Notes: a model not told the origin generated them from the sequence alone. A stretch of 43,234 nucleotides of DNA from Nitrospirota bacterium (GCA_963741205.1 CAVUHW010000040.1:1-43234); one strand, 5' to 3'. Numbered from the stretch's first letter, positions 1 through 32,556 are shown. Numbers and translations are program-made.

Positions 1-177
1 ACCTACTACTAAACAGGTTCGATAAGCAGCAACGCTGTTTTATTCGGCTTGAAGGTGTTGCCCAATATTTTCTGCCTTTGTGCACCCTCACAATCTCATA
101 AAATACAAATCCCCGTTTTTTTCATGCTCCCCGCCCTTCCGCTTATGAGAAACAAAGCGTGGCATGATTCATGGCTT

Positions 178-2677
<2,500 letters not shown>

Positions 2678-3051
2678 GATTAATCCTTGATCATGATATG
2701 TCGTACGCCGTAATTTTCTTTCCTCTTTAAACAATCTTCGGATGATTAAATTTTAGCGCATTATCTAACTGTTCGTGCTCGTCTACTCATAAACTACGTA
2801 TTTTTCGCGTCAACCAGCATGACGCCAATCCGGTGGCACTGAATTGAAATAACGTTGAAAACCGATACAATTACCACCGGCATAAGCAGCGTATCACTTC
2901 ACGCCTTCAGCACGAGGACTTTCCCGTATTCTATTGAGCCAACTGTTATTACCCCCGCTGTAATTGTCGTCTGCACCTGTTATTTGCTCATGGTTTTTAG
3001 CCAAAGTGCGTTCTTCCGGAGGACATTTTACCACTTATTTTTCCTCAAATC

Positions 3052-3065
3052 ATTTGTATTCAACT
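3052..3065. promoter_or_regulatory. Imperfect ATTTG-N4-CAAAT operator-like site (ATTTG TATT CAACT)
   Basis: One mismatch to the motif seen at five other promoters; lies next to a minus-strand extended -10 (TGGTAAAAT, ~3025-3033) pointing to copA. Confidence 0.5.
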
Positions 3066-3193
3066 TAATTCATCGCCTGTCCTGGCTTATTTCGTAGCAT
3101 ATCCTACACATGATTGCGTCAGTTGATTTATATTCTCTTTTTCATTGATACGGGAATATCATCTTTTCAATGAATTATCATGAATGGCATGGA

Positions 3194-3209
3194 TGGCATG
3201 GCAAATGCA
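3194..3209 (+). promoter_or_regulatory. sigma54 (-24/-12) promoter, copy 1
   Basis: TGGCATGGCAAATGCA = GG-N10-GC, conserved in the paralogous copy at 7529. IHF-like TTTCAATGAATTA at 3165-3177 just upstream. Confidence 0.75.
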
Positions 3210-3320
3210 CTATATATAAGCAAAACAACGAAAGAAGGAAACAAGAATTGTATCTTAGAAGATTAATTTTATTCAGTTGTAGAATTAAGATACTGAAGTA
3301 GCTAAAAAGAGGTGATCGAC

Positions 3321-3344
3321 ATGAAAAAGAAGTTTCCGCCGTAG
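3321..3344 (+). CDS. Putative leader peptide MKKKFPP*
   Basis: Strong SD (AAGAGGTG) upstream; conserved as MKKMFPP* in the second copy. Confidence 0.5.
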   Translation: MKKKFPP

Positions 3345-3416
3345 CAGGTTTCATGATGTCCTATTCCGAAGTGAACAGTTCCATTAAAAAATCTAAAAAA
3401 AGAAAGAGGTATTAAA

Positions 3417-3812
3417 ATGAAAAAGACAATATTATATGTGACAACGATGATGTTCGTCCTTGCTCTTGGAGTTTCCTATGCTGAGGCAGGCAGTAATTTC
3501 GGCAGTAATAAGGCTATCGCAAACACTAACTATGATATCGGTCCTGCAGATGTACCAGCTACGTCGATGGAAGTCACAAACGCCGGTGGGATACGATCGG
3601 TCGAACTAGGCATGGGATTGAATAACGCCGTTACGGACTTCAGCGGTAAGTCCTACGATTCGTTGGCGGACCTCAACGTAGCATCACTCGGTGAAAGACA
3701 GAGTGCAACCGCGGAAGGTTCACATGCCGGCGGGCTGCGATCAGTAGAGAATGGTATTGAGTCCTTTAACGGTGTTACCGACTTCACCGGAAGATCGTAC
3801 GATATCCTTTAG
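3417..3812 (+). CDS. Unknown secreted 131-aa protein with two internal AGG-x-RSVE...N(G/A)VTDF(S/T)G(K/R)SYD repeats (copy 1)
   Basis: SD AAGAGGT, Sec signal ending AEA, paralog at 7754..8149, downstream terminator. Confidence 0.9.
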   Translation: MKKTILYVTTMMFVLALGVSYAEAGSNFGSNKAIANTNYDIGPADVPATSMEVTNAGGIRSVELGMGLNNAVTDFSGKSYDSLADLNVASLGERQSATAEGSHAGGLRSVENGIESFNGVTDFTGRSYDIL

Positions 3813-3877
3813 ACGATCGACTAATAACTGACACCAGCAGAAGTATTAAAAATTTCTCGAGGCTACAGAAATCGAAC

Positions 3878-3910
3878 AAGAGCAGGCTGATTCACTGCCT
3901 GCTCTTTTAT
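3878..3910 (+). terminator. Rho-independent terminator
   Basis: AAGAGCAGGC...GCCTGCTCTT stem followed by T-rich tract. Confidence 0.75.
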
Positions 3911-4143
3911 TATAAATCAGAACCCTTCCGATGATGTTAGGGAAACACCCACCATGCACGGCCCAATGGTTAGTCATGTCATTGACCTAGATTATTAATT
4001 TAGTGATGATAAAATAATCCCTGATACAATCATGCATCCTCCGCACTTTAAGCAGTGCTTATACGGATTCGCCTATCCACGTAAATCCGTAGGTTACCTA
4101 CAGATTACGAAAAAAATATTATTATTCTAAATTCTGTCTCGTT

Positions 4144-5495
4144 CTATTTGAGCCCGAATTTAACCATCCGGTAGATGAGCGTCGGCCTCGTGATGCCCAG
4201 ATATTCCGCTGCGCGAGTCTGGTTGTGGCCGGTCTTCTCGAGGGCCTTGATAATCAGGTTTTTCTCCAGCGCCTCAAGATCGATCCCCTCCTCCGGAAGG
4301 TTCAGCAAGATGCTCTCGATGCTGTTTTTTTCTTTTTTAGCTTGTCCGGCAGGTCGTTCGGCGTCAAGACGTCTCCGCGTCTGAGTACCGACGCCCTCTC
4401 AATGACGCTTTCCAGTTCGCGGACGTTGCCGGGCCATCCATAGGACATCAGCACGTCAAGGGTTTCCTGCTGAACGCTGACGCCGGCATCCTTTGTGAAC
4501 TTCCTCAGAAAATGACTGACGAGGAGCGGGATGTCTTCCCGGCGCTCACGCAGGGGTGGCATGCGCAGGGCTATTACATTGATCCTATCGTAGAGATCCT
4601 CGCGGAACTTTCCTTCCCTGATCAACTGCTCAATGTCCCTGTTCGTTGAGGCGATGATTCGTACATCCACGTGTATGGATTTCGTGCCGCCGACCCGGTC
4701 GACGACCCTTTCCTGGAGGACCCTAAGAATTTTTGCTTGCAGATCGATGCGAAGGTCCCCGATCTCATCGAGGAGCAGCGTTCCTCCGTCTGCAAGCTCG
4801 AACTTGCCTTCCTTGTCCCTTACAGCGCCTGTAAAGGCTCCCTTCGCATGCCCGAAGAGCTCGCTCTCGATCAGGTTCTCGGGGATGGCGGCGCAGTTTA
4901 CCGCTATGAAGGGACCGTCGGTCCGATTGCTGTTGAAATGGACGCCTTTTGCGAGAAGTTCCTTACCCGTCCCCCTCTCCCCCGTGATCAGCACCGTCGC
5001 GTCGCTCGCGGCCACCCGCCCTGCCATGTCGAGCACTTCCCTGGTCTTGGCGCTGCTTCCCACGATACTCTCGAACCGGTACCGGTCGGTGACCACGGCG
5101 CGGAGCTCTACGTTCTCCTTCTCGAGCCGCCGCATCCGGAGCGCCTTATCGAGCGTCATTCGGAGCTCATCGCGGTTAAAAGGCTTGGTTATGTAATCGA
5201 AGGCGCCCTGCCTCATGGCCTCGACGGCGTTCTCGATCGTGCCGTAGGCCGTGATCATGATGACCGGCATACCCGGATCGCGCTCTCGGACCCTAGCCAG
5301 GACCTCCATGCCGTTCATTCCGGGCATGGTGATATCCGTGATCACCGCGTCGAAGGAGCTGTCCTCAAAGAGCCGCAGTCCTTCCTCGCCGCTCGCAGCG
5401 GTCCGCACGCGACTACCGGCCTCGGCTATGCTGAACTCGATGACCCGGCGCAGACTCTCGTCGTCGTCTATGAGGAGGATGGAGGATTTTTTCAT
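4144..5495 (-). CDS. sigma54-dependent NtrC/AtoC-family response regulator (REC + AAA+ + Fis HTH); frameshift in the poly-T run at ~4325-4340
   Basis: Receiver DD...D..MPG, GxxGTGKE, GAFTGA, LLDEIG, WPGNVREL. The HTH tail ALEKTGHNQTRAAEYLGITRPTLIYRMVKFGLK* is in another frame, ending at 4144. Confidence 0.93.
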
Positions 5496-5609
5496 ATTTG
5501 GATCAATGCAACCGCGCCTGCGCCCAGCGTTTACCTGTGCGATAGCGCAAGTGCAGCGTGTTGCTGTAATGAATGTACCGTCGAGGCGAGACGCGCTCCA
5601 TAAGTTTAC

Positions 5610-6713
5610 TCACACCGGTATCTTCACCGTAAAAGTCGCTCCCTTGCCCGGCTCGCTAGCGACATCGATCTTACCGTGGTGGTTCTCGACGATCCTGTAG
5701 GTAATCGCAAGTCCTAGGCCGGTGCCGTTTTTCTTGGTCGTAAAGAAGGGACTGAAGAGCTTCTTCCGGCCTTCTTCCGAGATGCCAACGCCGGTGTCGG
5801 TGATCACTACCACGATCATCCCGTCGCGGAGATCACTCGCGACCCTCAGCGTACCTCCCGTCGGCATTGCCTGGATGGCATTCAGCACCAGGTTCAGGAA
5901 CGCCTGCTTGAGCAGTCCTTCATCGAGGCTGCGCTTCCCGATTGACGGATCGAGCCGCTTCTCGACGTTCACGCCGGCTTTGCGCGCCTCCTGGGCCGTG
6001 AGCGTCAGCACCGCTTCGAGAGACTGGTTCACGTCGGACTGCTGATACTCGGGCTTCTTGGGCCGTGCAAACCCCAAAAACTCCTGCACGATGCAATTCA
6101 GCCGGTCCGTTTCCTTAAACAGTATCTGGATGAACTCGTACTTCGAGTCCTCGGGCGAATAGTCGTCCTTCAGGATCTCGACGGCGCCCTTGATTGCGCC
6201 CAGGGGATTTCTGATCTCGTGAGCCATACCTGCGGACAGCTCGCCAAGCGCAGAAAGCCGGTCGGCGCGTCGGAGCTGCTCTTCGGTCTGGAACAGGACG
6301 TCTGTCTGCTCTTTCAGTTTCCGGTGGGACTCGTCGAGACGGCGCATGGCCTCTTCATTTCGAATCCGCTGGCTGTGCTCCATCTCGCTTAATACGCCAG
6401 TGACGCCGCCGATCAGGAAAAACAGAAACAGTTCCACGTAGTTATAGACACTCAGAAAAGGGTCATGCCAGTGAAGGAATAGGTGCGGCGAAAAAAGTGC
6501 CGCCGATGCCATGGAAACCGACAGACCGCCCTTAGCTCCGTACCAATACGCCCCGAGGATGATCGGCACGATGTAGAGATGGCCGAGCAGGCCATGCAGT
6601 ATGCCCGCCGCCGAGATGCCCACGCTGTAATGGATGATCGAGATGAGCACAAGGAGCCCCGTAAGCATATACGCTCGGAAGCCCCTAATATGGCTGCGAG
6701 GTAATAAGATCAT
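5610..6713 (-). CDS. Sensor histidine kinase with His-rich membrane sensing domain
   Basis: H-box AHEIRNPL, N-box NLVLNAIQA, G-boxes DTGVG and GTGLGL; about four N-terminal TM segments containing several His. Confidence 0.93.
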   Translation of the reverse strand: MILLPRSHIRGFRAYMLTGLLVLISIIHYSVGISAAGILHGLLGHLYIVPIILGAYWYGAKGGLSVSMASAALFSPHLFLHWHDPFLSVYNYVELFLFFLIGGVTGVLSEMEHSQRIRNEEAMRRLDESHRKLKEQTDVLFQTEEQLRRADRLSALGELSAGMAHEIRNPLGAIKGAVEILKDDYSPEDSKYEFIQILFKETDRLNCIVQEFLGFARPKKPEYQQSDVNQSLEAVLTLTAQEARKAGVNVEKRLDPSIGKRSLDEGLLKQAFLNLVLNAIQAMPTGGTLRVASDLRDGMIVVVITDTGVGISEEGRKKLFSPFFTTKKNGTGLGLAITYRIVENHHGKIDVASEPGKGATFTVKIPV

Positions 6714-6851
6714 AAAGTGAATCCGAGGCCCTGAAAACGCGGTGCAGTATCCCCCTCTTGTCCAATTACAAAAGGAGCGATTTTATTTAAATAACACCAG
6801 AGACACAAACAATACCCCCCACTACTTGATCTGGTCTTTGGCGAAATATTG

Positions 6852-7067
6852 TCACTCTTCAATCCGATATCCGAGCTTCTCAATACTGTCCTTCGTGATC
6901 TTCGATAGCTTTTCCTCGTCAATCACTGCTTCGTTGAACTTTACGGCGATCTTCCCGTGCTCCACGTCTATGGAATCAACGCCATCCATCCCGCCGACGA
7001 ACCGTCTCAGTGCAAGCGAGCACTCACCGCATAGATTGTTGCTTACGTTAAATAGAGCTACTTTCAT
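6852..7067 (-). CDS. HMA-domain (CopZ-like) metal chaperone
   Basis: 71 aa, CGEC motif, DGV.SIDV, C-terminal IEKLGY typical of the HMA fold. Confidence 0.8.
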   Translation of the reverse strand: MKVALFNVSNNLCGECSLALRRFVGGMDGVDSIDVEHGKIAVKFNEAVIDEEKLSKITKDSIEKLGYRIEE

Positions 7068-7112
7068 CGGTTTTCCCCTCCACTCTCAACAACACTCAAT
7101 CTATTTTTTGCA

Positions 7113-7346
7113 TTATGATTTCATAATATCATCCTTCATCCGCTCGAAATCTTCTTTTGATATCTCGCCCTTGGCAAATCGTTTCTTCAAAATATCAATA
7201 GGTGTCTCGTTTGCATCTGTCCTCATGTAGCGACTGGTTATTGCCTGAACAATATACAAGAAACCTGCAATAATCAGCACCCCTAAGATGATCATGAAGA
7301 ACCATCCGAATCCCATACCCCATCCGTAATTACCCCAGCTCATCAT
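7113..7346 (-). CDS. SHOCT-domain small membrane protein
   Basis: GWGMGFGW + TM helix + ILKKRFAKGEISKEDFERMK (SHOCT signature); SD AGGAG. Confidence 0.88.
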   Translation of the reverse strand: MMSWGNYGWGMGFGWFFMIILGVLIIAGFLYIVQAITSRYMRTDANETPIDILKKRFAKGEISKEDFERMKDDIMKS

Positions 7347-7384
7347 GCCCTATCTCCTGTTCATTTAATATACCACTTTTGTCA

Positions 7385-7408
7385 TATTAATTTGCATACA
7401 AATTAATA
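7385..7408. promoter_or_regulatory. Perfect palindromic operator TATTAATTTG-CATA-CAAATTAATA
   Basis: 10-bp perfect inverted repeat with 4-bp spacer, overlapping the promoter region of the SHOCT-HMA-HK-RR unit. Confidence 0.75.
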
Positions 7409-7528
7409 CAACTCCCGCGTCGTTTATTTCGAAGCATATCCTACACCTGATTGTATCGTTCGACTCATCTTCTTTTTTTATTGCGACGGGGAATCCGTCT
7501 TTTCAATGAATTACGCGTATGATGCGGA

Positions 7529-7544
7529 TGGCATGGCATATGCA
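7529..7544 (+). promoter_or_regulatory. sigma54 (-24/-12) promoter, copy 2
   Basis: TGGCATGGCATATGCA = GG-N10-GC; IHF-like TTTCAATGAATTA at 7501-7513. Confidence 0.75.
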
Positions 7545-7652
7545 AAATACATTGGCATACAGCGAAAGAGAATATCGTAAATCTTATTTACGTGGATTTT
7601 TTATTAAACTGCCGAACGAAGATACTGAGATAGTAAAAAAGAGGTGATTAAT

Positions 7653-7676
7653 ATGAAAAAGATGTTTCCGCCGTAG
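7653..7676 (+). CDS. Putative leader peptide MKKMFPP*
   Basis: SD AAGAGGTG; paralog of 3321..3344. Confidence 0.5.
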   Translation: MKKMFPP

Positions 7677-7753
7677 AAGTTGTATAAGAACTTTGTCTTA
7701 AGAAAGATGTTCCATTTCAAAACTAAAATCTAATAAAAGAAAGAGGTGCTAAA

Positions 7754-8149
7754 ATGAAAAAGACAATATTATATGCGATAATGATGATGTTGGTCCTTGC
7801 TCTTGGAGTTGCCTATGCTGAGGCAGCCAGTAATTTCGGCAGTAATGAGGCGATCCCAAACACTAACTACGATATCGGCCCTGCAGATGTACCAGCCACT
7901 TTAGTGGAAGGCGCGAACGCCGGTGTGATACAATCGGCCGGACTAGGCATGGAATTGACTAATGGAGTTACGGACTTCAGCGGTAAGTCCTATGAATCGT
8001 TAGAGGACATCAGCGTGGCATCACTTGGTGAAAAACAGAGTGCAACGGCGGAAGGTTCACATGCCGGCGGTCTGCGATCGGTAGAGCCCGGCGTTGGATC
8101 CTTTAATGGTGTTACCGACTTCACCGGCAGATCGTATGATATCCTGTAG
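7754..8149 (+). CDS. Unknown secreted 131-aa repeat protein (copy 2)
   Basis: Colinear, same-length paralog of 3417..3812 with the same signal peptide and repeats. Confidence 0.9.
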   Translation: MKKTILYAIMMMLVLALGVAYAEAASNFGSNEAIPNTNYDIGPADVPATLVEGANAGVIQSAGLGMELTNGVTDFSGKSYESLEDISVASLGEKQSATAEGSHAGGLRSVEPGVGSFNGVTDFTGRSYDIL

Positions 8150-8207
8150 GTGATCGTTTAACATACTCCTGTGGAAATGCTGACGGGTCCTCGGGTTCAT
8201 TGGGAAC

Positions 8208-8245
8208 AATAGAAAGCGGGCTGTCACCAGCCCGCTTTCTATTTT
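8208..8245. terminator. Likely bidirectional Rho-independent terminator
   Basis: AATAGAAAGCGGGCTG-TCAC-CAGCCCGCTTTCTATT perfect stem between convergent genes. Confidence 0.8.
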
Positions 8246-8383
8246 AAGTGAGCAGCATCTGATAATGTCGGGAAACACTGCCCCTTGCGCAACCTCTCCT
8301 GCCGTTCTTCTTCGCTATTTCAGCATTGCCAGATACCGCATTGTTCCATTTGGTCTGCATTTAAACACAGTCCAGGAATCACT

Positions 8384-8835
8384 TCATTTCATCATTCCTT
8401 CCTTCATCTTCTTGCCTTTATCCATCATCATTTGGCCTTCTTTCATCATCATTTCTCCCTTTTTCATCATCGTGTCCTTGTTCATCTTGCCTTCCTTCAT
8501 CATCTTTCCGTTCTTCATCATCATCTTTCCAGCATTCATCATCTTGTCGTCCTTCATCATCTTGCCTTTATCCATCATCATTTCGCCTTCTTTCATCATC
8601 ATTTCGCCCTCTTTCATCATCGTGTCCTTATCCATCTTGCCTTCCTTCATCATTTTGCCCTTGTCCATCATCATTTGCCCCTTTTCCATCATCATATCGC
8701 CGTCATGTCGCCATGTTTCATCATCATATCTTTGTCCATCATCTTTTCTGCTGCCTGTACGAAATTGACCCCTATTGAGAGCATCAGGACTATGGTGGAG
8801 ACAATTACTGTAGCTAATACAAATATCTTTTTCAT
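8384..8835 (-). CDS. Secreted Met/Lys-rich low-complexity protein (MXKDX-like repeats); frameshift at ~8700
   Basis: SD AGGAGG, signal MKKIFVLATVIVSTIVLMLSIGVNFVQA, then MMDKDMMMKHGDM, then frame change into (GxMMMK/DK)n repeats. Confidence 0.85.
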
Positions 8836-9249
8836 GGTAAATCCTCCTTTTGTTATTTACGAATTCTAAGGTTTGGTTTTAAAAATATCCCATAGATATC
8901 TCGGGATATAACTCTTGCGACTTTATCGCACTGTTCCTGATAGGTCTTTACGCCGTAGACTATGCTCTCACCTCCCCTCTGTCGATTATTTTTAATTACC
9001 GCCCTATCAGAAATTGTATCGATAGATTCTATTTAGAATGCGCAATTTGCAAATCTCACTGAACACAACCTTATCTGCCAATGAACTGCTCCGGACCGGA
9101 GAGCACCGCGGCCTTGATCCCTTGATCCTGAGAACGCCGTGCTCCCCGATGACATGGCCGAACGTATTAAGAACCTGACGCAGTGAGCCCCTTCGATTTA
9201 AACGAAATCAGGGCATGTCCATCTCCTGATATCGCAACCCACAATCTCT

Positions 9250-10288
9250 TCAATCATGATAACCCAGTCTGTGACTCTCGATATCAATATAGGTGAGCAC
9301 ATCCTTAATTTCTTCTTTATTCAACCCCAGATTGGGCATCGGCAGATCGTGGTACTCGGCCAATAAGGCCTTGGCGATGGGGTCTTTCTCTCTCAACATC
9401 TTGTCCGGCTCGGCCATCCAGCGGGTGAGCCAGGCCCGGTCACGCTTGTGGGTCACACCCAACAGGTCCGGCCCTAAAGGCCGCTTCTCGGCACGTTCTG
9501 CAGCCGTCATCACCGATCGTGTGGCAGGAGGCACAGCGGGTTCTGAAAAGTTCTTCTCCTTTGGAGATGTTTCGCACCTCGGGGGCCTCTGCATAATCTC
9601 TTTTCTCTTTTGGCGGCATCTTCCAGTTCTGCAACCAACTGCCTAACTGCGTGGCTAGGACGTAGGGGTTTTCAAAGGGTGACAGCTTCATCCACTGCCC
9701 CGTTGCCTGATTGCCGACGATGAAACTCAGGTTGTGGTCCTTAATGTTGTCGCCCTCCTCTTCGCTGTACAGGCCGAGTTTCGTGCGGATCAGTTTGATG
9801 TCGGCGTCCTTCCCGGTCAGAAACAGCCAGCCCGGGCCGATCTGGAATCTTTTTGCGTATTTTCTTAGGACTTTCACGGTATCATGCTTCGGATCTATCG
9901 TGATTGAATACAGAAAAACATCGCGACCGACCCGGTCCCCCAGTATCCTCTGAACCTCGCGAAGTCTCGCCGTCTCGAGGGCGCAGGCATCCGGACAATT
10001 CGTATAAATGAAGTTGAGCGCTACAACCTTGCCTTTTATGACATCAGTAAAGAACCGGACCTTCTTTCCTTCATGGGTGGTGAGTTGGACATCGGGGAAG
10101 TAGTCCGCGCCCCACATCGATCCGCCCGTTTCGTCGGCAATGGCGGGGCCCGCCGGGAAAATCACAATAGCTCCGATGAGCAATAATATGGCAGTAACTG
10201 CATGGATCGAGTTGCCGGTGTAATTTTTGCATAATTTCTCCCAAAATTCCCCTCCTCCCATCCCTCTCCCGCAGGGTAAGAGCTGCAT
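9250..10288 (-). CDS. SCO1/SenC copper chaperone fused to a monoheme cytochrome c; frameshift at ~9490-9510; start codon uncertain
   Basis: FIYTNCPDAC (CxxxC), SITIDP.HDT, conserved His; then CASCHTIG and, in the next frame, GPDLLGVT...W...MPNLGL. Confidence 0.88.
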
Positions 10289-10341
10289 TTGCAGCCACTC
10301 TGAGTGGATGGGTTGAGAAGGATGATGTTCCTAGTATACAC

Positions 10342-10369
10342 AAAAAAAAGGGGCCGTTTTTCGGCCCCT
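10342..10369 (-). terminator. Rho-independent terminator after the multicopper oxidase
   Basis: GGGGCCG/CGGCCCC stem next to an A8 run on the + strand. Confidence 0.65.
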
Positions 10370-10384
10370 CGCGATCAGTTGCCG

Positions 10385-13268
10385 CTAGGGAATAGAAGCT
10401 TGAACTGCAGGCCCGACCCCGTCGCCCGTCCTGAAGGTGGGGAGTGCTGCGGAGTCCACAAATTCTACCCCTTCCCACGTCGGCATGGGCGCAGGCATCA
10501 GCTTGAGCTGTCCTGGATGCTCGATGTCCCAGCGAAGCAGCATGGAGTGGTCCTCGTGCTGAGTATTGTGGCAGTGCTCCATGTAGGTCCCGTGAAACTC
10601 CCTGAAATGGATGGCGATCTCGACGCCATTGGTGTCATCGCCCAAGGGGCCTATCCGGTAGATGTCCTTGCGGGCATATTTTTCCCACAGGGGCGGCTCT
10701 TTCCCTCCGCGCGTCAGGATGACGCCTTCTTCAAAATGGACGTGGACCGGATGGGTCCAGCCTTGGCCGCCGTTCACAATATGCCATATCTCGAGTGTAC
10801 CATCCCCACTGAAACCCGCTTTCGTAGGACCGGTGGCGAGTTGAGGCGCGGCCGAGATCCGCCTGGGATCCATACCGAAGTCCGCCTCCCCGTCAGTTTT
10901 GATGGTCCACCGGGTCTGGTCCGTGGGGTTCGAGCGGGCGAATTCGAAGGTGCGGTGCCGCGCCTTCGCTATCTTTGCCAGATCGATCGGGTCATCACGA
11001 TGGATGGGAAGCGTGATCATTACTTTCCCTCCCGGTTCGAATCTCGTCGGGTCCATGGAGAGGTCTGTGCCGGAATACGGGAATACCCGGAATTCCAGGA
11101 ACCTACCGACACACGGGTCTCCTCCGACCCAGCGAAGCGGTACGCCGTTTGCGTCAAGCTCCATCCGGGCTTTGTATCTCTCGGACAGAATATCCGCAAG
11201 CGGGATCTTCCGATTCGGGCCCTTGCCGGTCGAATGTTCGAGCACATTGACGAAGTAAAGCTTATCGCCGGGCTTGATGCCGTATTTCGCGAAGTCGACG
11301 ATGATATCGTAGCGTTCGCGCAAGGCGGCCCAGTTCCGGCAGAATGGCGTTATGGTCGGCGTCCATTCTTGAGTCAAAGGCGATCGCGTGCTCCATGATA
11401 TTGCCGTCATTGGCGATCATATGGAATGGCACCCTGTTGTAGGAGACCCCGGAGTCCGGAGGTCCCGGCATCTCGCCGCCATCCCCCTTTATCTGATGTA
11501 CCAGCCCGATTGCGAAGAAGCGCGACGTCGAGGCGTCCAGAATACGGAAGCGATAGCGTCGGGCGCGAACGTTAAAGTAGGGGTGCCACAGCAGGTTGGT
11601 CGTGATCTCGTCGCCCACGAACCCGTCGAGGTTGAAGATATTGAACCACAGCTGGCCTTCCCGGTCCCAAGCCTTGTCCATGATGAAAAGGTTCACGTCA
11701 TAGTCGCGGTTCCCCCATGGCAGCGCCGTGCCGCTCGGGAAGCGAAGGTTGATTCCGTCGTCGAACGCTTCATTGCCCCGGTCTAGCGCGCTGTAGTAGT
11801 TCATCTTGGCGGCGTTGCCCTTGTATACGTTCTGGGCCGTGAAATCGAACATGTGGTCATGGAACCAGTGGGAGCTCATCGTCTCCCTCCAGTCGCCGCG
11901 GATCTTGATGGAGCCGTTTTCGCAGGTCTTCGGGTTCGGCTTGCCGTCGTTTACAAAGAGCGTTTCGCCGGGCGAACACGGAAATGCGGCCCGGGGATCG
12001 CTCGCGTCGGTGTTGATGCTGTCGTAGCCCGCCAGCTGGATCGGCCAGCGATAGTCATAGAACTCCCCCGGGAAGAAGAACGCATTGGTGAAGCCGTCGC
12101 TTTCACCCGGGGAGTGGCCGTTGTGCTCGTGGGTCGTGATCGTGTGCAGCCCGAAGCCGCGGTTCGCCGTCGGGTCAATGGGGAGCGCGTTGTGATGGCG
12201 GAAAGGATCGGCTCTCCATAGCGCACCATCGAGCAGCTTGGGCGGAAGCGTCCCGTCCAAGGTCCACATGGTCTTGTGGTTCTGAACAGGCATCAGCGGG
12301 TGGAATCGGAACGCGACGCCTTTCGTGGTCCCTACGAGCTTGGGCGCGCCCGGGACCGAGGATTCGTAGACCGTGTGATAAAGGCCTCCCGGTCCGAACT
12401 CACCGAGTGCGTACCCATGCCTCTGCAGACTGTCGCGCAAACCGGTGTTCGTGCGTGCGCCCGCAATGGCCGTTTGGGCAAATACTTGAGGAGTGAACTC
12501 GTTCCAACGCTGATGGGCCCAGCCTTCCCCCGGAGGTCGGCCTTCGGCTGGGGCTGTGGCAAGCGGCCTTCCAAGGAAGGCCTCAATGTCCCCTTTCCAC
12601 GGGTTTTGATCTCCGGTATCGGAGAACCTTGTGGGAAAAGGCGCAAGGCCTTTCTGCGAGAGAAAGGCATCCAAATCAGCCCCCGATGGGCCGCTCGCGA
12701 AAATGCTAGCCGGATCCTGCTCTGGCCCGGGTCCGATAGAAGGCATTGGAAACGGCATTGTCGGCAAAGGAGAGGACGGATCGAGCGGCTCGGTACCCAG
12801 CTCCTCGGCTCTCATCATCTGTTGGGTGAAATCCTGGGCGCCAAACAGCGGGCTCGGCCTGCCGTTGGTAGGGATGTTCAACGCCAGCAGTTGCGCCTTT
12901 TGGACTACATTGTTGATGCCCTCGTCTTTGAAGGTCCCTGATGGACCTCCCACGAAGGCCCCCTGATTTGCCGGAGGAAGCGTGGCGAGCAGATCACGGG
13001 CAAACTGCAGCCCGATGAAAGGCCCGATGAACGCGGTCGGATCTCCCGCCGGCGGCGGAGCAAAGCAGTCCAGTACCCCAGGTGGCGGGACGACGCAGGC
13101 GCCGATCGCCATGCTTCTTATTTTGGGGTCTGTCACCGGGCCTTGCGGAGACGATGTTCCGCCACTGCATCCCCACAAAGTTATAAGCAAACCACTGAGC
13201 ATTACACCGATAAAGAATCGATCGAATTTCTTTATCGGATTAGCTGACGCTATATTTATTTTTAACAT
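10385..13268 (-). CDS. Large lipoprotein multicopper oxidase; frameshifts at ~12205-12230 (compensating pair) and ~11330
   Basis: Lipobox LWGC; copper motifs THEHNGH, HWFHDH, HPVHVH, HCHNTQHEDHSM across the two ORFs. Confidence 0.92.
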
Positions 13269-16296: not shown

Positions 16297-16833
16297 ATGA
16301 CCAAAAAGGCAGATGCTGTCGCTGAAATCATCGATAATCTGCGCAGAGTATTCCAAGTGGTGAACGAACAGTCCAAGAAGGCCGAACATGAAACGGGCCT
16401 CACCGGCCCCCAACTCTGGGCGATCAAGACCATAGCCCAGGAAGCGCCCATCATGGTCTCGGATATAGCCAAACGCATGCACCTTCACCCCGCGACCGTC
16501 GTGGGAATACTCGATCGTCTTGAAAAACAGGAACTCGTCGTTCGCGTGAGATCGACTGAAGACAGGCGCGTAGTAAAAGTAGAGCTGACCAGGCAAGGCC
16601 GTGCCCTCGTGAAAAAATCGCCGGAAGTTGCCCAGGGGCTTCTGGTCTCCGGATTAGAGAAACTCGGCGAAAAGAAACTCAAAAACATCTCCGAGGGCCT
16701 GGATCAGATGGTGGATATCCTCGGCGCCCAGAACATCCCGCCCCGGCTTATTCTTTCCCCGGAAGTGAACAAGCCGGCAAAACGGAAAGCCGTGCACGAA
16801 ATTAGACAGGCACGAAAGAAACCGGAGGTTTGA
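16297..16833 (+). CDS. MarR-family transcriptional regulator (copy 1)
   Basis: LTGPQLWAI...HPATVVGILDRLE...RSTEDRRVVKVELT..G winged-helix signature. Confidence 0.93.
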   Translation: MTKKADAVAEIIDNLRRVFQVVNEQSKKAEHETGLTGPQLWAIKTIAQEAPIMVSDIAKRMHLHPATVVGILDRLEKQELVVRVRSTEDRRVVKVELTRQGRALVKKSPEVAQGLLVSGLEKLGEKKLKNISEGLDQMVDILGAQNIPPRLILSPEVNKPAKRKAVHEIRQARKKPEV

Positions 16834-17893: not shown

Positions 17894-20138
17894 TCAATCG
17901 TTCGGTGCGCCCGTATTGATCCAGATCTTGATGATGTTCTCCTCATGCGTGAGATAAGAACGGTGGACCGTCCTGCGGCATTCGAAGCGTGCTGGTGATT
18001 ACACCGGTCGCCGTGATCCTTTGGAACAATATGCTGTTGGGAGCGTCAAAAGGCACTACGCGGGTGCCCGTCGTCTGCGTGGCAAGCTGGTTCACCAGAT
18101 TGGAGTATGAAACATCCGGCTGAAGGATGAGCCCGGTATACCCCGCGGCCGCGAAGGGCTGGTGGCACTTGACGCAGCGGCCGGAAAAGATCGGCTGGAC
18201 ATTGCCTGAAAAGGTCTGGAGCTGCCCGCGGATTTCACCGCCCGGGTTCAGCAGAGGTGTCAACACTGATGTAGAACCCGGCGGAGATGAATCTGTTCAT
18301 CTGCACGTCGCTTAACGTGGGAGCAGTCGCAGGGATGGTCCATGTGCCGCTGCGGGAGGCGTCTCGGTGAGGGAAACCACAGGTGTAGTGCTGTTGTTGT
18401 CGGCATCCGCGTCATTGATATGGACGGCGGTGACGGTGTTTGTGCGTCATATTGGAAATAACCACCGTGCCGGTCAGCTTTTTTGTCGCCGTATCCAATA
18501 CCACTGTCGCCGTGCCCGTGGCGCTTGAAGTTACAGCCGGTGCCGAAACGACCTGTATTATCGTTCAGGAAGGCATTACGGGTATATTGTTTGGACGGCG
18601 GCGCCTGCGGAGCCTGCACGGCGCCGTTATTGTCCATGGCCCCCATGATGATCCAGACTTTGATGAGGCCTTGATCATGCGATGACAGCGCCGGCGTGAC
18701 CGGACTGGGAGGAGGCATGACCGACCCGACAACCGAGGAGAACCCGACGCCCGATTATTCGTTGAAGCAAAACGCTGTTATCGGCGTCAAAGGGGATTAC
18801 CCGCGCGCCGGTTGACTGAGTGGCGGGCTGGTTCACCAAGGTAGTGAGTGATATATTGGGGGACAAGTCGAGTCCGGTAAACGCAGCAGGTCCCAGAGGA
18901 TAGTGGCACCCGGCGCAATTAGCATTGAATATCGGCTGAATGTTGTCCGCATACGACAGGAGCTGACCGCGGATCTCGCCTCCCGGGTTTACGGAGGTGT
19001 CAACGCTGATGTAGAGCCCGGCTGCTTTGAATCTTTCCTGTTGCGCGGCGGTCAATGCGTCAGCCGTATCAGGCACGGTCCACGTTCCGCTGCCGGGGGG
19101 CGTTTCCACGAGGGAAACAACGGGATCACCATTGTTTCCAGGGTCGCCTTCGTTTATATGGACGGCCGTGACAGCGTTCTTCATGTTGGAAAGAGCCACC
19201 GTGCCGGTCAGGCGGTTTGTAGTCGTATCCAGCACCATTGTTGCAGATCCCGTGGCGGCTGAAAGTACAGGAGCTAGAGAAACGACCTGGATATTGTTTA
19301 GTAACGCCCTGCGGGTAAATTGAGGACTGAGGACGCCGCTGTCGTTTTCAGCCCCCATGTCGATCCAGGCCTTGATAAGGTTTTCATCATGCGTGTTTAA
19401 AAAAGGTCCGTTAAGAGGCATTCGCTGCGTATCTGAGAAGCCGACGCCGGTTATCCTTCGGTAGAGCACGCTGTCGCTTGAATCGAAGGGCACCACCCGG
19501 ACGCCCGATGATTTCGTGGCATTCTGGTTGACCAGAAGGCCGTAGGAGAGGTCTTGGCCCAGAAAGAGGCCCGTCGAAGACGCCTGTCCGCCGCCATTAT
19601 GACAGCCCACGCAATGCTGATCGAATATCGGCTGAATGTTGTCCGTAAACGACAGGAACTGTCCGCGGATTTCACCGCCCGGGTTCGCCGAGGTGTCGGC
19701 GACCACGTAAAGACCTGCCGTTTTAAATCTGTCCTGTTGCGCGGCGATCAATGCCGCAGCCGTATCCGGAATGGTCCATGTTCCGCTGCCGGCGGGCGTC
19801 TCCACAAGTGAAACAACGGGAGCGCCGTTGCTTCCGACATCGCCGTCATTGATGTGGACCGACGTGACCGCATTCGTCATGTTAGCCAGAGTCACCGTGC
19901 CGGTCAGCTTGCCGGTCGCCGTATCCAGTGTCACTGCCGCCGTGCCCGTGGCGGACGAAACCGGAGGCGTGTCGGAGACTACCAGTTTATCGGTCAGAAA
20001 CGCATGACGGGTGATCGCGTTGATTGATTGCGGAGTCTGGCCGCTTGATCCGCCGCCATTGCTCTTGCAGGACAAGACGGTTACAGTCATGCAAAAAAGA
20101 GCGAGAGAAACAATCAGGAGTCGGTTCATGGAATTCAT
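17894..20138 (-). CDS. Lipoprotein with three tandem CHRD + monoheme cytochrome c modules; several frameshifts
   Basis: Lipobox VLSC; three times ATGxA..LDT.T..LTGTV...VHIN.GD...GLY.....NPGGEIRGQ followed by CVGCH, CAGCH and CVKCH, each with MP and a WIxxGA end. Confidence 0.85.
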
Positions 20139-20443: not shown

Positions 20444-21276
20444 ATCTCAAAATTGATTTTTTCTTGTGATATATACCGAATCTGATATTATCGGGCATGG
20501 CATTGCGTATTACAGACGAGCAATGGGAACTAATCCGGGAGCACTTCCCAGAAGAAAATATTCCCGATGGTCGCGCAGGACGCAAGCCGATACCCACTCG
20601 TCAAGTCCTTGAAGGTGTGCTCTGGATCCTGAACACAGGAGCGCAGTGGCACATGCTTCCACAATGCTATCCGAACTATAAAACTGTCCATCGTCGTTTT
20701 CAGCAGTGGTGCCGCAAAGATGTCCTGCGTGATGTTCTGTGCCAGCTAGCAAACACACTGCGCGAGTCCGGAGCGCTGGACGAATCCGAGTGCTACATCG
20801 ATGCAACCTTCTCCCCGGCAAAAGGCGGAGGAGATGGCATCGGCCTAACAAAGCGAGGAAAAGGCGTGAAAATCATGGGTATTGTGGATCGCAATGGTTT
20901 GCCCCTGGCAATCACCACGCACGCTGCGAATCACCATGAAGTCACGCTTGTTCAGCTGACTTTTGACTTCTACATGATTGAAGCAAAGCCGGAGAAGCTG
21001 ATTGGCGACAAAGCGTACGATAGCGATCGTCTCGATGACGAGTTGAAAAATGACGGCATAGAAATGATCGCGCCGCACAAAAAGAATCGCGTTCTTCAGC
21101 AGACGCAAGACGGTCGAGCGCTGCGTCGCTATAAACGACGTTGGCTCGTTGAAAGATTCTGGTCCTGGCTTCACTGGCATCGGCGTCTCGTTGTTCGCTG
21201 GGAATACTACACTACGAATTTTCTCGGCTTTGTTCAGCTAGCATCCATCTGTATCCTACTAAAGCAATTTTGAGAT
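20444..21276 (+). mobile_element. IS5-family insertion sequence
   Basis: 12-bp perfect inverted repeats ATCTCAAAATTG (20444-20455) and CAATTTTGAGAT (21265-21276) around a transposase; exact outer ends and target duplication not resolved. Confidence 0.85.
20497..21273 (+). CDS. IS5-family transposase (single ORF)
   Basis: TDEQW...GVLWILNTGAQWHMLP..YP..KTVHRRFQQW; IDAT, GDKAYD, YKRRWLVER. Confidence 0.95.
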   Translation: MALRITDEQWELIREHFPEENIPDGRAGRKPIPTRQVLEGVLWILNTGAQWHMLPQCYPNYKTVHRRFQQWCRKDVLRDVLCQLANTLRESGALDESECYIDATFSPAKGGGDGIGLTKRGKGVKIMGIVDRNGLPLAITTHAANHHEVTLVQLTFDFYMIEAKPEKLIGDKAYDSDRLDDELKNDGIEMIAPHKKNRVLQQTQDGRALRRYKRRWLVERFWSWLHWHRRLVVRWEYYTTNFLGFVQLASICILLKQF

Positions 21277-21548
21277 AATCAAATGATATTTAGCAGATCA
21301 TGATTGATTCCATAAAAAGAGGGCGCCGGGTGCAGCAGAGGAAGCCCCGGTGCCCCTAAGTGGAACAAGTGTCGCAGCTTACGGGGATGCTATCTCGCAT
21401 CCTCGTGGTTGGCATTCAAGACTCCGTGAGGACCCCTTCCTTTCATAGCAATATGATGCAAAAGTATTCCCTAAAACGCAATGACCGGCAAGTCGTCGAT
21501 GGCAGCATTGCATTTTTAGTTGCATTCTCTATATTATGTGCTAAAATG

Positions 21549-21562
21549 GTTTGTATTCAAAT
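21549..21562. promoter_or_regulatory. Operator GTTTG-TATT-CAAAT upstream of the second MarR gene
   Basis: One mismatch to the motif; same position relative to marR and to a minus-strand TTGACA (21585-21590) as at copy 1. Confidence 0.65.
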
Positions 21563-21612
21563 TAATACCACAACAGAAGTGCAATGTCAATGTCGTTTTG
21601 GAGAATTCGCCT

Positions 21613-22137
21613 GTGAAAAAGAAACCCGACATGATTTCGGAAATCATCAACAATCTGCGCAGAGTTTTCCAGGCGGTGAACGAACAGTCGAAAAAGGTCG
21701 AGCGCCAAACAGGCCTTACCGGCCCTCAGCTCTGGGCGATCAAGACCATCGCCCAGGAAGCGCCGATCATGGTATCGGAAATAGCCCGTCGCATGTATCT
21801 CCACCCGGCTACGGTAGTCGGTATCCTTGACCGGCTCGAGAAACAGGGGCTCGCTGTGCGGGTTCGCTCGACGGAAGACCGGCGTGTTGTGAAGGTGGAA
21901 TTGACCAGACAAGGTCAGTACCTCGTCAAAAAAGCGCCAGAAGTGGCTCAAGGCCTCCTGGTTTCCAAGCTCGAGAAACTCGCCTCGACGAACCTGAAGA
22001 ACATCTCCGAGGGGCTGAATCAGATGGTGGATATCCTCGGCGCCCAGAACATCCCTCCCCGTCTTATGCTCTCCCCGGAGGTAAACAGGCCGGCGAAATC
22101 GAAAACTACTTGGAGGGAAAAGGACGTAAGGATATAG
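21613..22137 (+). CDS. MarR-family transcriptional regulator (copy 2)
   Basis: Close paralog of 16297..16833; GTG start after a GGAG SD. Confidence 0.92.
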   Translation: MKKKPDMISEIINNLRRVFQAVNEQSKKVERQTGLTGPQLWAIKTIAQEAPIMVSEIARRMYLHPATVVGILDRLEKQGLAVRVRSTEDRRVVKVELTRQGQYLVKKAPEVAQGLLVSKLEKLASTNLKNISEGLNQMVDILGAQNIPPRLMLSPEVNRPAKSKTTWREKDVRI

Positions 22138-30357: not shown

Positions 30358-31560
30358 TCATTTGCTCTTGTTCACTGCCATTACATAGCGCATGGCAAGC
30401 GGCGCAAGCAGGGTCGTGAGCGCAACTACGAAGACGACCACGGCATAGGCTGCGTCGTCGAATATCTTGCTCCGCTTTCCCACCTCGGCAAAAATCAGGC
30501 CGACCTCACCCCGGGGCACCATAGCGACGCCCGTGGACAGCTTTTCCCGAAAGCCGCCCGGCGCCCATACGCCGCTGGCCATTTTGCTCAACACCGCAAC
30601 GACGGTAAGAACTCCTGCATAACCCCAGAAGGCCCCAGAGTGCATGTCGATCACCCGCAGGTTGATGGAAACGCCGACCATCACAAAGAATACGGGAACG
30701 AATAGGTCGATGATGGGCGTAATGCTCTCTTCGATCTTTTCTGCAAGCTGATGACTGTAATGCTCGATGCTTGCGCCCAAGGGAAGGAAGAACCGGCGCG
30801 CAAGAGCGATCCCCGCCGCAAAGGACCCGAGGATCGCCGGAGCGCCCACGCTGCGGGAAATGACTGCCAGGCCGAGGATCAGGGATATGATAATAGTGGG
30901 GACCATGCCCTTCGTTCTGCCGGAGGATGCCGCCTTCGCCATCAGCGGAACGAACAGCTTGGCCAGCACCGGTGCAAGGAGCAGGAACGCCGATATGAAC
31001 ACCAGGATCCTTGCAGTTGCCGCGACGCTCACGGTCCCCTTGACGGCAAAATCGTAGAGTACGGCAAGGACGACTACGCCGATCACGTCGTCCAGGACAG
31101 CGGCGCCGAGGACGATCCGCGCCATTCGGCTAAGGTGTTGGTTCAGGTCCTTCAGCACACGCACGGTGATCCCTATGCTCGTTGCTACGATCGTGCCTCC
31201 CACGAAGAGCGAGGGGATCACGGCCATTCCGAAAAAGCGATAGGACACCCAGAACCCGAGGACACCCGGGACTACAACGCCGGTGACCGCAACCAGTGTG
31301 GACCTCACGCCTTCTTTTACGAGCTGACCCACGTCTGTTTCCAGACCCACTTCGAAGAGCAGCAGCAGGATGCCAATCTCCGCGATAAGTTGGAATGTTG
31401 GTTCCGGTGCTATGAACCGCAAAACGCTCGGCCCTATGATCAGACCGGCGACAACCTCCCCAAGCACTGAAGGGATGTTCAGCCTGCTGAATACTTCGGC
31501 AAATAACTTCGCCGCGAGCAGAATAACAAGCAGTTTGAGAAAAAATTCCGAAACTTCCAC
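30358..31560 (-). CDS. CPA2-family cation:proton antiporter
   Basis: LLFEVGLETD, ATSIGITVRVL, AAVLDDVIG, MVPRGEVGLIFA; probable GTG start at 31560 after GGAGAGG. Confidence 0.92.
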   Translation of the reverse strand: MEVSEFFLKLLVILLAAKLFAEVFSRLNIPSVLGEVVAGLIIGPSVLRFIAPEPTFQLIAEIGILLLLFEVGLETDVGQLVKEGVRSTLVAVTGVVVPGVLGFWVSYRFFGMAVIPSLFVGGTIVATSIGITVRVLKDLNQHLSRMARIVLGAAVLDDVIGVVVLAVLYDFAVKGTVSVAATARILVFISAFLLLAPVLAKLFVPLMAKAASSGRTKGMVPTIIISLILGLAVISRSVGAPAILGSFAAGIALARRFFLPLGASIEHYSHQLAEKIEESITPIIDLFVPVFFVMVGVSINLRVIDMHSGAFWGYAGVLTVVAVLSKMASGVWAPGGFREKLSTGVAMVPRGEVGLIFAEVGKRSKIFDDAAYAVVVFVVALTTLLAPLAMRYVMAVNKSK

Positions 31561-31584
31561 TATTGAGCCTCTCCCTGATGAAAT

Positions 31585-31632
31585 AAAAAAGGCCGGCGCA
31601 AGCATCAATGGAAAAATGCTCTTTGCCAGCCC
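31585..31632 (-). terminator. Intrinsic terminator inside the 5' leader of the antiporter operon
   Basis: Minus strand GGCUGGC...GAGCAU-loop-AUGCUU...GCCGGCC followed by U6. Confidence 0.7.
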
Positions 31633-31708
31633 TCTTTCCCGGCGTACTCTGTTCATCCTGTAGAATGTACTTCCGGGCGCGTCAGTCCGCCATGCATCGT
31701 TAGTATTT

Positions 31709-31749: not shown

Positions 31750-31944
31750 TTTATACCCTCTTATTAAAAGCAGTGAGCCGCTCGCCCATCCAACAACTAC
31801 ACCTATTCCAGGCAATCTTCGCGCCAGAGACATGTTGTCTGAATACATCCCACCACATTCGTTGAAAAGCAATCGGTTGCTCCTTGCATTTCTCATTTCG
31901 CGGGGTATACTGATAGTATCTCAACTGTCTTAAGGAGGTATCTC

Positions 31945-32556
31945 ATGAACTCTGCAGCCGCTTCATCCTCGTCCCGTCGTTTCCTCATCATGGTGCTGCA
32001 TTTCATTGCAGCGACCGCAACGGTTGCCGTGCTGACGACGTCAGCCATCGGCGCCCCCAAAAAAGGGGGAGGCCCCATGTTCACTAAAGATGGGGAACTG
32101 GTCATGCCCAAGAATTTCCACCTCTGGGTCTTTGTCGGAGCACCGGTCACGCCTAACGACATGAACAACGGCAAGGCGCCATTCCCCGAATTCCACGATG
32201 TCTACATCGACCCGGCCAGTTTCGCCGCATACAACAAGACCGGCAAATTCCCCGACGGCACTATTCTCATCAAGGAGCTTGCATCAGTCGGCGCAAAAAG
32301 CGCCGCCAGCGGAAACGGTTATTTCCCGGGCGAATTCATCGAGGTGGAGGCAGTAGTAAAAGACTCGAAGAGATTTGCGAAGGAACCGGGCAACTGGGCC
32401 TATTTCAAATTCATGGGGGCAGACGGCAAGCCCCTGGACAAGGCCAAGATGCAGCCGACGGAGAACTGCAACGGGTGTCACGAAAAGAACGCTGCGGAGG
32501 ATTGGGTTTTCACCCAATTCTATCCCGTCCTGCGGGCGGCGAAAGCAGCCAAGTAA
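31945..32556 (+). CDS. cytL: Cytochrome P460 (Nitrosomonas CytL-like)
   Basis: VTPNDMNNGKAPF, FPDGTILIKEL (cross-link Lys), SGNGYF, EAVVKD..RF..EPGNWAYF, CNGCH, VFTQFYPVLRAAK. Confidence 0.85.
   Translation: MNSAAASSSSRRFLIMVLHFIAATATVAVLTTSAIGAPKKGGGPMFTKDGELVMPKNFHLWVFVGAPVTPNDMNNGKAPFPEFHDVYIDPASFAAYNKTGKFPDGTILIKELASVGAKSAASGNGYFPGEFIEVEAVVKDSKRFAKEPGNWAYFKFMGADGKPLDKAKMQPTENCNGCHEKNAAEDWVFTQFYPVLRAAKAAK

Follow-up and report, generated by a model that had tools for sequence, protein, structure and literature searches.

Paired putative sigma-54 cassettes for a secreted repeat protein flank NtrC-type two-component genes in a copper-gene cluster of a Nitrospirota bacterium

Sigma-54 promoters require an enhancer-binding protein, and the small secreted disordered proteins of copper and silver clusters, PcoE and SilE, are driven by two-component systems and bind metal via histidine and methionine. 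In the ZraPSR system of Escherichia coli and Salmonella, which is associated with zinc and envelope stress, ZraR drives the divergent sigma-54 promoters of zraSR and of zraP, and ZraP is a periplasmic chaperone, as an excerpt of PMC4987338 describes. The excerpted text of PMC3707914 presents CorSR, of the curA cluster of Myxococcus xanthus, as a copper-responsive sigma-54 two-component system beside a multicopper oxidase and CopA. Here we describe a locus comparable to both on a stretch of 43,234 nucleotides (nt) from a Nitrospirota bacterium (GCA_963741205.1, CAVUHW010000040.1:1-43234), the whole of which is referred to as the window. Two diverged direct copies of a ~775-nt unit, at ~3052-3826 and ~7390-8163, lie either side of a set of two-component genes, a SHOCT-HMA-kinase-regulator operon, and each copy carries a predicted sigma-54 promoter in front of a gene for a secreted protein of 131 residues. 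We propose that the two units are co-regulated monocistronic sigma-54 cassettes and form the output of the two-component system that they flank, and we give this whole chain a probability of roughly 0.55.

The duplication was characterised by a repeat search of the window, by blastn and by pairwise alignment. Five collinear direct-repeat families (D3 and D5-D8) keep a start-to-start spacing of 4332-4337 nt, and alignment of 2950-3950 with 7290-8290 gives a mean column identity of 84%. The left edge of homology by blastn falls at ~3052/7390, with a 49-nt match at 75.5% identity beginning at 3052, and the right edge lies ~15 nt 3' of the stop codons, at 3826/8163. The terminator hairpins of the two copies are not homologous to each other and do not align, so that on this alignment the copied unit is the promoter region, the leader and the coding sequence, with the terminators outside; each copy has acquired or kept a terminator of its own. 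An earlier sequence-only reading had described the copies as paralogous along their whole length, non-coding parts included, each with a conserved block, an IHF-like site, a GG-N10-GC promoter, a mini-open reading frame (mini-ORF), an uncharacterised secreted protein and a terminator. All of these elements were recovered, as listed below, and only the left edges proposed at that stage, 3025 and 7366, proved ~25 nt too generous.

3052-3069, + strand: imperfect counterpart, in copy 1, of the AT-rich palindrome at 7386-7407; homology with copy 2 begins here (blastn)
3087-3116, + strand: 30-nt block, putative upstream activator site, copy 1; 28 of 30 positions identical to copy 2
3165-3177, + strand: IHF-like site, copy 1; TTTCAATGAATTA, identical in both copies
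3194-3209, + strand: predicted sigma-54 (-24/-12) promoter TGGCAT-N5-ATGCA, copy 1; predicted start ~3220
3304-3344, + strand: Shine-Dalgarno sequence GAGGTGAT and 7-codon mini-ORF MKKKFPP-stop (ORF 3321-3344), copy 1 (sequence reading)
3417-3812, + strand: secreted repeat protein, copy 1, 131 residues (ORF)
3878-3906, + strand: intrinsic terminator hairpin followed by a U-tract, copy 1; -17.6 kcal/mol, z -2.93
7386-7407, no strand assigned: perfect AT-rich palindrome with 9-nt arms and a 4-nt spacer, between the SHOCT gene start and cassette 2 (sequence reading)
7424-7453, + strand: 30-nt block, putative upstream activator site, copy 2; conserved with copy 1
7501-7513, + strand: IHF-like site, copy 2; TTTCAATGAATTA, identical in both copies
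7529-7544, + strand: predicted sigma-54 promoter TGGCAT-N5-ATGCA, copy 2; predicted start ~7555
7641-7676, + strand: Shine-Dalgarno sequence and mini-ORF MKKMFPP-stop (ORF 7653-7676), copy 2 (sequence reading)
7754-8149, + strand: secreted repeat protein, copy 2, 131 residues (ORF)
8208-8243, + strand: intrinsic terminator hairpin followed by a U-tract, copy 2; -33.8 kcal/mol, z -8.05

The two 131-residue proteins are 79% identical and their coding sequences differ at a proportion of 0.244 of synonymous (pS) and 0.094 of non-synonymous (pN) sites; since dN/dS is 0.34, both genes are under purifying selection. The non-coding background between the copies is mostly 56-66% identical, with short spacers at 42-50%, whereas six islands stand out: the 30-nt block, the IHF-like site, the promoter, the Shine-Dalgarno sequence of the mini-ORF and the mini-ORF itself, all at 90-96%, and the ribosome-binding region of the main gene, where 25 of 28 positions are the same in both copies. 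These islands fall exactly on the predicted functional elements of the cassette, which supports the proposed reading, and the two diverged copies thus serve as a natural footprint that marks enhancer, bending site, promoter and mini-ORF. Small hairpins at 3142-3162 and 7485-7499 were considered as a further shared element and rejected, their registers differing between the copies. In the signal-peptide codons 1-24 (3417-3488 against 7754-7825) there are five non-synonymous and no synonymous changes, a pattern that differs from the rest of the gene and may be due to chance or to constraint on the nucleotide sequence around the start of translation. By analogy with zraP and zraSR, copy 2, being divergent from the regulator operon, is probably the older, and copy 1 is probably an insertion into the interval that separates copA from the regulator gene's 3' end. 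A remnant of the SHOCT gene 5' of copy 1, which would have pointed to a larger duplicated segment, was sought by tblastn and blastn, and nothing significant was found.

The promoters read TGGCATGGCA[A/T]ATGCA, and 18 of the 20 positions of their island are conserved between the copies. Their GG and GC doublets stand at the canonical 10-nt spacing, and each copy agrees at 9 of 11 positions with the consensus TGGCAC-N5-TTGCW quoted in the excerpt of PMC3707914. The strict pattern TGGCAY-N5-WTGCW has two matches in the 43 kilobases (kb), and both are the cassette promoters (0.15 expected; 2 of 100 shuffles reach two); both sites are intergenic and correctly oriented. The case for the promoters is one of position, orientation, conservation and an adjacent activator gene, not of the match alone, and on these grounds they are very probably real. 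With transcription assumed to start 12 nt after the GC, the block would be centred at about -120 and the IHF-like site at about -49, and the leader would measure ~197-199 nt; the succession of block, IHF-like site and -24/-12 promoter supports the prediction of an enhancer-type layout. The consensus for IHF is WATCAANNNNTTR, which TTTCAATGAATTA mismatches at one position; the site lies within an island identical at 17 of 18 positions, and a relaxed IHF pattern has 7 matches in the window against 2.9 expected, a mild enrichment that is weak evidence by itself. Elsewhere in the window, a 9/11 sigma-54-like site, TGGCGC-N5-TTGCC at 31811-31826 (- strand), lies ~155 nt 5' of a Na+/H+ exchanger gene (30358-31656) and could be a chance match.

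The 30-nt block occurs in the window at its two cassette positions only (0.00 expected), and its core, 3092-3109 in copy 1, is a degenerate palindrome in which ATCCTACAC is the right half. Neither the block nor its 11-nt core has a further copy in the window, and no sigma-54 candidate faces copA or the SHOCT-HMA-kinase-regulator operon; for the latter, the minus strand from 7347 to 7753 holds no site of at least 9/11. Should the block be what the regulator binds, the two cassette genes would make up its whole local regulon. The idea, put forward in the sequence-only reading, of a self-contained circuit is doubtful, since neither copA nor the genes of the sensor and regulator are faced by a sigma-54 promoter. 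The perfect palindrome at 7386-7407, which overlaps a possible minus-strand promoter of the extended -10 type (7375-7367), is a candidate operator of the SHOCT-HMA-kinase-regulator operon.

The genes between and around the cassettes are as follows.

143-2734, - strand: copA, copper-type P1B ATPase, divergent from cassette 1 (Pfam E1-E2_ATPase, HMBD, YHS)
4144-5495, - strand: NtrC-family response regulator; REC, sigma-54 AAA+ and AAA lid in 4302-5495, HTH_8 in 4144-4308
5610-6713, - strand: histidine kinase with a His-rich 4-helix membrane N-terminus (Pfam HisKA, HATPase_c; hydropathy)
6852-7067, - strand: CopZ-like HMA protein, CGEC motif present, signal peptide absent (Pfam HMA 23.2 bits against a cut-off of 24.8)
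7113-7346, - strand: SHOCT protein with a membrane anchor, its gene the first of the SHOCT-HMA-kinase-regulator unit (Pfam SHOCT 39.7 against 27)
8384-8835, - strand: secreted protein of Met-rich repeats, its gene convergent with cassette 2 and outside the duplicated unit (ORF; repeats D1/D2)
9250-10288, strand not noted: SCO1-cytochrome c gene, metal cluster neighbour
10385-13268, strand not noted: multicopper oxidase gene, metal cluster neighbour

The regulator matches Pfam Response_reg, Sigma54_activat (238 bits) and HTH_8, carries GAFTGA in its translation, and is the sole DNA-binding regulator found in the 13-kb metal cluster, the nearest others being MarR genes at 16.3 and 21.5 kb. Its best NCBIfam scores are to AtoC, NtrC and ZraR, all below the equivalog cut-offs. 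The kinase has 8 of its 12 histidines within the first 115 membrane residues, with HxxxHWHD in a predicted outer loop, and shows four hydrophobic segments and no periplasmic domain; for the kinase the Atlas offers DUF4118-like membrane domains as a lead (score 0.91; 28% of members carry the family). On TIGR01386 (cztS_silS_copS) the kinase scores 95.8 bits against a cut-off of 292.6, and the regulator is of the NtrC type rather than of the OmpR family, so that the pair does not belong with CusRS/CopRS. The sequence-only reading had placed an NtrC-type activator with GAFTGA, a His-rich kinase, an HMA protein and a SHOCT protein between the cassettes, with copy 1 divergent from copA and copy 2 from the SHOCT-HMA-kinase-regulator unit. 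The orientations and the histidine content of the kinase hold, and activator, kinase and SHOCT protein match Pfam; the HMA protein falls just under its cut-off (on NCBIfam CopZ it scores 31.8 bits, below the cut-off of 91), and the regulator is split between frames. CopA carries one YHS and two HMBD domains at its N-terminus and scores 519 bits on TIGR01511 against a cut-off of 397. A 91-nt direct repeat within its gene, 2208-2298 and 2319-2409 at 76% identity, corresponds to the two tandem HMBD domains. The Met-rich protein has no Pfam or NCBIfam match and consists nearly entirely of repeats rich in Met, Lys, Glu and Asp (MMKEG/MMMDKG units, periodicity 15-21 nt); it probably binds Cu(I) in the periplasm. 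The genes of the window past 13.3 kb have no relation to metals.

Each leader contains a mini-ORF of 7 codons behind a strong Shine-Dalgarno sequence. In copy 1 the latter is GAGGTGAT, which we take to be an unusually long complement to the 3' end of 16S ribosomal RNA. Between the copies the mini-ORF is identical at 23 of 24 nt by direct reading and its Shine-Dalgarno sequence at 13 of 14, whereas the four bases from the Shine-Dalgarno sequence to the ATG differ at two of four aligned positions (at all four by direct reading) and the 43 nt after the mini-ORF stop are 56% identical. Conservation of both elements amid diverged flanks is the pattern expected of a translated mini-ORF, and we infer its translation from this pattern; any role in regulation is putative. 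The mini-ORF terminates in Pro-Pro-UAG; termination is slow after a C-terminal proline. Adjacent prolines are able to stall ribosomes, according to part of PMC8129111. The mini-ORF is known from the two paralogs of the window alone. A structured leader or riboswitch was also considered and rejected: the cassettes have no Rfam match at gathering thresholds, and neither A-rich leader is more stably folded than its shuffles (z +1.73 and -0.13).

Neither copy of the 131-residue protein has a Pfam or NCBIfam match at E <= 0.01. A word-indexed search of 5.8 billion clusters returned 7 proteins at E <= 0.01, a number that includes both window copies, and a full HMMER scan of 1.84 billion representatives returned 64 at E <= 0.001, 23 at <= 1e-10 and 1 at <= 1e-30; two of the 64, P0012 and P0062, are unrelated giant repeat proteins and were dropped from the counts, which leaves a family that is both rare and unannotated. 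The family set (n = 66) was assembled from the remaining 62 matches, the two window copies and two extra word-index matches. All 66 sequences measure 80-186 residues and none has an additional domain attached; 54 have a signal-like N-terminus, most of the others appearing N-terminally truncated. In 57 of the 66 a core motif of consensus L-Y-N-G-[VI]-T-D-F-[ST]-G-[RK]-[ST]-Y-D occurs in two or three copies, mostly 41-48 residues apart, and alternates with VE[GS]SxAGG[LIM]R. The mature window proteins are acidic, with net charges of -7 and -10. AlphaFold2 with the 66-row alignment gave a mean predicted local distance difference test score (pLDDT) of 56.8 and a predicted template modelling score (pTM) of 0.20, only the signal-peptide helix being confident, and the model suggests either that the protein is disordered or that its fold is beyond the reach of so shallow an alignment. 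The Atlas feature search with the protein had a best score of 0.82, below the meaningful level, and its lead to PcoE was weak (rank 26, score 0.76). The core motif strings occur in no paper of the literature library searched, the plasmid collection holds no match to the protein (its DNA matches are to the generic sigma-54 AAA+ core only), and the two closest homologs, 65% identical, are on contigs of 1.0-1.2 kb. The locus offers a handle on the function of an otherwise uncharacterised protein family. Related loci were sought in species-representative genomes with an 8-row family alignment, and three were found, L001 to L003, all in Nitrospirota assemblies.

The tandem units, with their near-invariant 12-residue core, the recurrent AGG[LIM]R between cores and variable linkers, also suit a different role, in which the proteins are multi-copy precursors and each 41-48-residue repeat is released or modified as a secreted signal or metal-binding peptide; the predicted disorder agrees with this. 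However, no gene for a maturase, protease or exporter adjoins the cassettes in the window or the homologs within 8 kb in L001 and L002, the proteins contain no cysteine, and modified peptides seldom carry a Sec signal peptide, so that we regard precursors as very improbable. A wider proposal, that the NG[VI]TDF[ST]G[RK][ST]YD proteins are a new class of secreted disordered multi-motif stress effectors or multi-copy peptide precursors, captured in this lineage by a sigma-54 metal sensor and with their synthesis gated post-transcriptionally by the Pro-Pro-stop mini-ORF, is improbable too; if true, arrest at the mini-ORF would make output depend on the condition of the machinery for translation or export, a second layer of control undescribed for metal-stress regulons.

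In the circuit that we favour, the His-rich kinase in the membrane would sense a metal or envelope signal, most plausibly copper, perhaps in concert with the HMA protein of its operon, and would phosphorylate the NtrC-type regulator. The regulator would assemble on the 30-nt block ~120 nt 5' of each promoter, DNA bending at the IHF-like site would allow it to meet the closed sigma-54 complex at TGGCAT-N5-ATGCA, and ATP hydrolysis would open the promoter. The transcript would begin with a ~197-nt unstructured leader containing a well-translated 7-codon Pro-Pro-stop mini-ORF, and the product would be exported by Sec as an acidic, largely disordered periplasmic protein with two or three repeats, which would protect against stress or act as a buffer and would resemble ZraP, Spy or PcoE in role though not in sequence. 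Action of the regulator at the block is rather likely, while the protective or buffering role is a tentative and somewhat doubtful assignment.

Several observations weigh against this circuit. At the looser threshold of 9/11 the window holds 11 sigma-54-like sites against 7.7 +/- 2.6 in shuffles, and the cassette promoters, at 9/11, score no better than nine other sites of the window. No stable or shared structure in the leaders explains how the mini-ORF would act, and they revealed neither alternative RNA structures nor a terminator on which ribosome stalling might act. The sequence-only reading had suggested checking that homologs of the protein are linked to CopA and to the kinase and regulator, and this linkage fails in all three related loci: none has a CopA or NtrC-type gene within 8 kb, a strict sigma-54 promoter, or the mini-ORF tail. 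The family as a whole is thus not tied to copper genes or to sigma-54, and, so far as these loci show, only this lineage has the sigma-54 wiring and the mini-ORF. L002 encodes a 130-residue homolog beside a cytochrome c gene, with a sigma-70-like extended -10 promoter and with no metal genes, palindrome or mini-ORF. In L003 there is only a frame-broken fragment (7674-8146) with one AGG-type and one NGITDF motif, beside multihaem cytochrome genes, and it looks like a decayed member of the family.

The remaining locus, L001, is the one of the three that adjoins a CusA/CzcA-type pump. Its homolog (127 residues, 37% identical) is monocistronic with a terminator and is divergent from an operon of an outer-membrane factor, a CzcB-like adaptor and a CusA/CzcA-family pump; between the two, at 7821-7842, lies a perfect 22-nt palindrome whose 18-nt core matches block copy 1 of the window at 15 of 18 positions, and the 11-mer ATATCCTACAC is common to this palindrome and both window blocks. 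The chance expectation of each of these patterns is 0.00-0.3, and the palindrome is the strongest outside evidence for the block as a protein-binding site tied to the family. The promoter of the L001 homolog, however, is a sigma-70-like extended -10 type ~40 nt before the gene, and the locus has no strict sigma-54 promoter, mini-ORF or enhancer-binding protein within 8 kb, so that the palindrome there may be bound by another kind of factor than an enhancer-binding protein. A MerR-type operator between -35 and -10 was considered for it and set aside, spacing and -10 hexamer fitting poorly. The 30-nt block could in the same way be the operator of a different factor, either a repressor or an activator of the sigma-70 type, whose gene lies elsewhere, with the local regulator acting at another site or on other genes. 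The L001 palindrome, ~115 nt 5' of a sigma-70-like promoter, agrees with such an operator, as do the presence of a second conserved palindromic element (3052-3069 and 7386-7407) and the fact that one half-site alone is well kept in the window. The position of the block is nevertheless enhancer-like, ~120 nt 5' of a sigma-54 promoter with the IHF-like site between, and the enhancer-binding protein that such promoters require is encoded nearby by this regulator only; an operator for an outside factor is thus clearly unlikely, and we retain the regulator as the candidate ligand of the block.

In the sequence as it stands, a frame break separates the regulator ORF from the DNA-binding domain, which also counts against the proposed circuit. 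The break lies at an A6-G-A7 run, with HTH_8 in a separate frame at 4144-4308, and it is not the only one: five genes of the 143-13268 cluster (copA, regulator, Met-rich, SCO1-cytochrome c and multicopper oxidase) are split between frames. In copA an extra G in a G-run near the 3' end places the true C-terminus in the ORF at 178-366, and the Met-rich gene is split into two frames at ~8692-8695. Taken as true pseudogenes, these genes would belong to a decaying circuit with the cassettes as silent relics. The two breaks read base by base, in the regulator and copA, however, both sit in homopolymer runs, where assemblies of long reads typically go wrong, and the breaks are therefore likely to be assembly errors from error-prone reads. 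With coding sequence otherwise intact and strongly scoring on either side of the breaks, and with purifying selection on the cassette genes, decay is quite improbable.

Copper as the signal, read from the neighbouring CopA, HMA, Met-rich, SCO1 and multicopper oxidase genes, has in our estimate an even chance at best. Against it, the sensor domain of the kinase has no known ligand, and the mature window proteins contain one histidine, one or two methionines and no cysteine, with no conserved soft-metal ligand; across the family no cysteine, histidine or methionine is conserved. A sigma-54 circuit could also be driven by another metal (Zn, Ag or Cd) or, as with ZraSR, by envelope stress, the copper cluster being circumstantial. 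The lack of copper-type ligands in the secreted protein would fit, as would the kinase and regulator cores, whose scores on the AtoS/AtoC and ZraS/ZraR models are roughly on a par with those on any other model, all below the cut-offs; the CusA/CzcA-family pump and CzcB-like adaptor of L001 leave metal specificity open, and L002 has no metal genes. All other identifiable genes in 143-13268 are copper-associated, however, and a CxxC HMA protein is co-transcribed with the kinase, which makes a signal other than copper unlikely. The copper-responsive circuit put forward in the sequence-only reading thus stands in its cassette anatomy, its enhancer layout and the NtrC type of the sole regulator in the cluster, while copper, read from the neighbouring genes, is its putative signal.

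Further features of the window lie outside the metal cluster. A cyclic di-GMP-I riboswitch at 39984-40063 (- strand; 54.2 bits against a gathering score of 35) is the sole Rfam match in the window. Two genes of the MarR family (16297-16833 and 21520-22137) enclose an IS4/IS5-type transposase gene (20497-21273), all on the + strand, and possibly represent a second duplication. Two cytochrome P460 paralogs lie ~2 kb apart at 31945-32556 (+ strand) and 34347-34898 (- strand), and a CHRD-cytochrome c protein is encoded at 18675-20138.

Compared with described systems, ZraPSR is the closest in architecture: an NtrC-family regulator and a kinase adjoin, and diverge from, a sigma-54 gene for a small periplasmic protein, a layout that copy 2 repeats. 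The output protein of the window, however, has no ZraP/CpxP/Spy-type match, nor any other in Pfam or NCBIfam, and the kinase has a 4-helix membrane sensor, not a periplasmic domain. The scores on the NCBIfam equivalogs fall short of the cut-offs, at 224 bits against 479 for ZraS and 379 against 760 for ZraR. The kinase/regulator operon of the window lacks a sigma-54 promoter and includes HMA and SHOCT genes, and the output is duplicated and preceded by a mini-ORF. In metal and gene context the closest system is CorSR, whose regulator likewise combines REC, Sigma54_activat and HTH_8. As the excerpt of PMC3707914 describes it, and the comparison is by description only, CorS has a periplasmic sensor domain and the CorSR genes are themselves part of an operon of nine genes, for which four putative sigma-54 promoters are given, that of copA among them, whereas copA of the window has no such promoter and the predicted targets are two separate small genes. 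Membership of the locus in ZraPSR or CorSR is not supported, because the equivalog scores fail, the sensor differs, the output is unrelated to ZraP and the operon lacks a sigma-54 promoter.

The secreted proteins resemble PcoE and SilE in being small, secreted, predicted disordered and encoded in a copper cluster, but they have no PcoE match in Pfam and their single histidine and one or two methionines are not conserved. With leader peptides and upstream open reading frames of the TnaC type, and with Pro-Pro pausing, the cassettes share a very short ORF, a strong ribosome-binding site, a long leader and a Pro-Pro-stop end; they differ in leaders without a switchable RNA structure and in a mini-ORF predicted from sequence in two paralogs. 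Taken together, the regulatory logic is already known, with ZraPSR and CorSR as precedents, and what is new is the unannotated protein family, the duplication of a full promoter-plus-gene unit around its presumed regulator, and the conserved Pro-Pro-stop mini-ORF. The natural footprint given by the two diverged copies makes the locus a compact and directly testable model of a metal circuit based on sigma-54, in a lineage that has been little studied.

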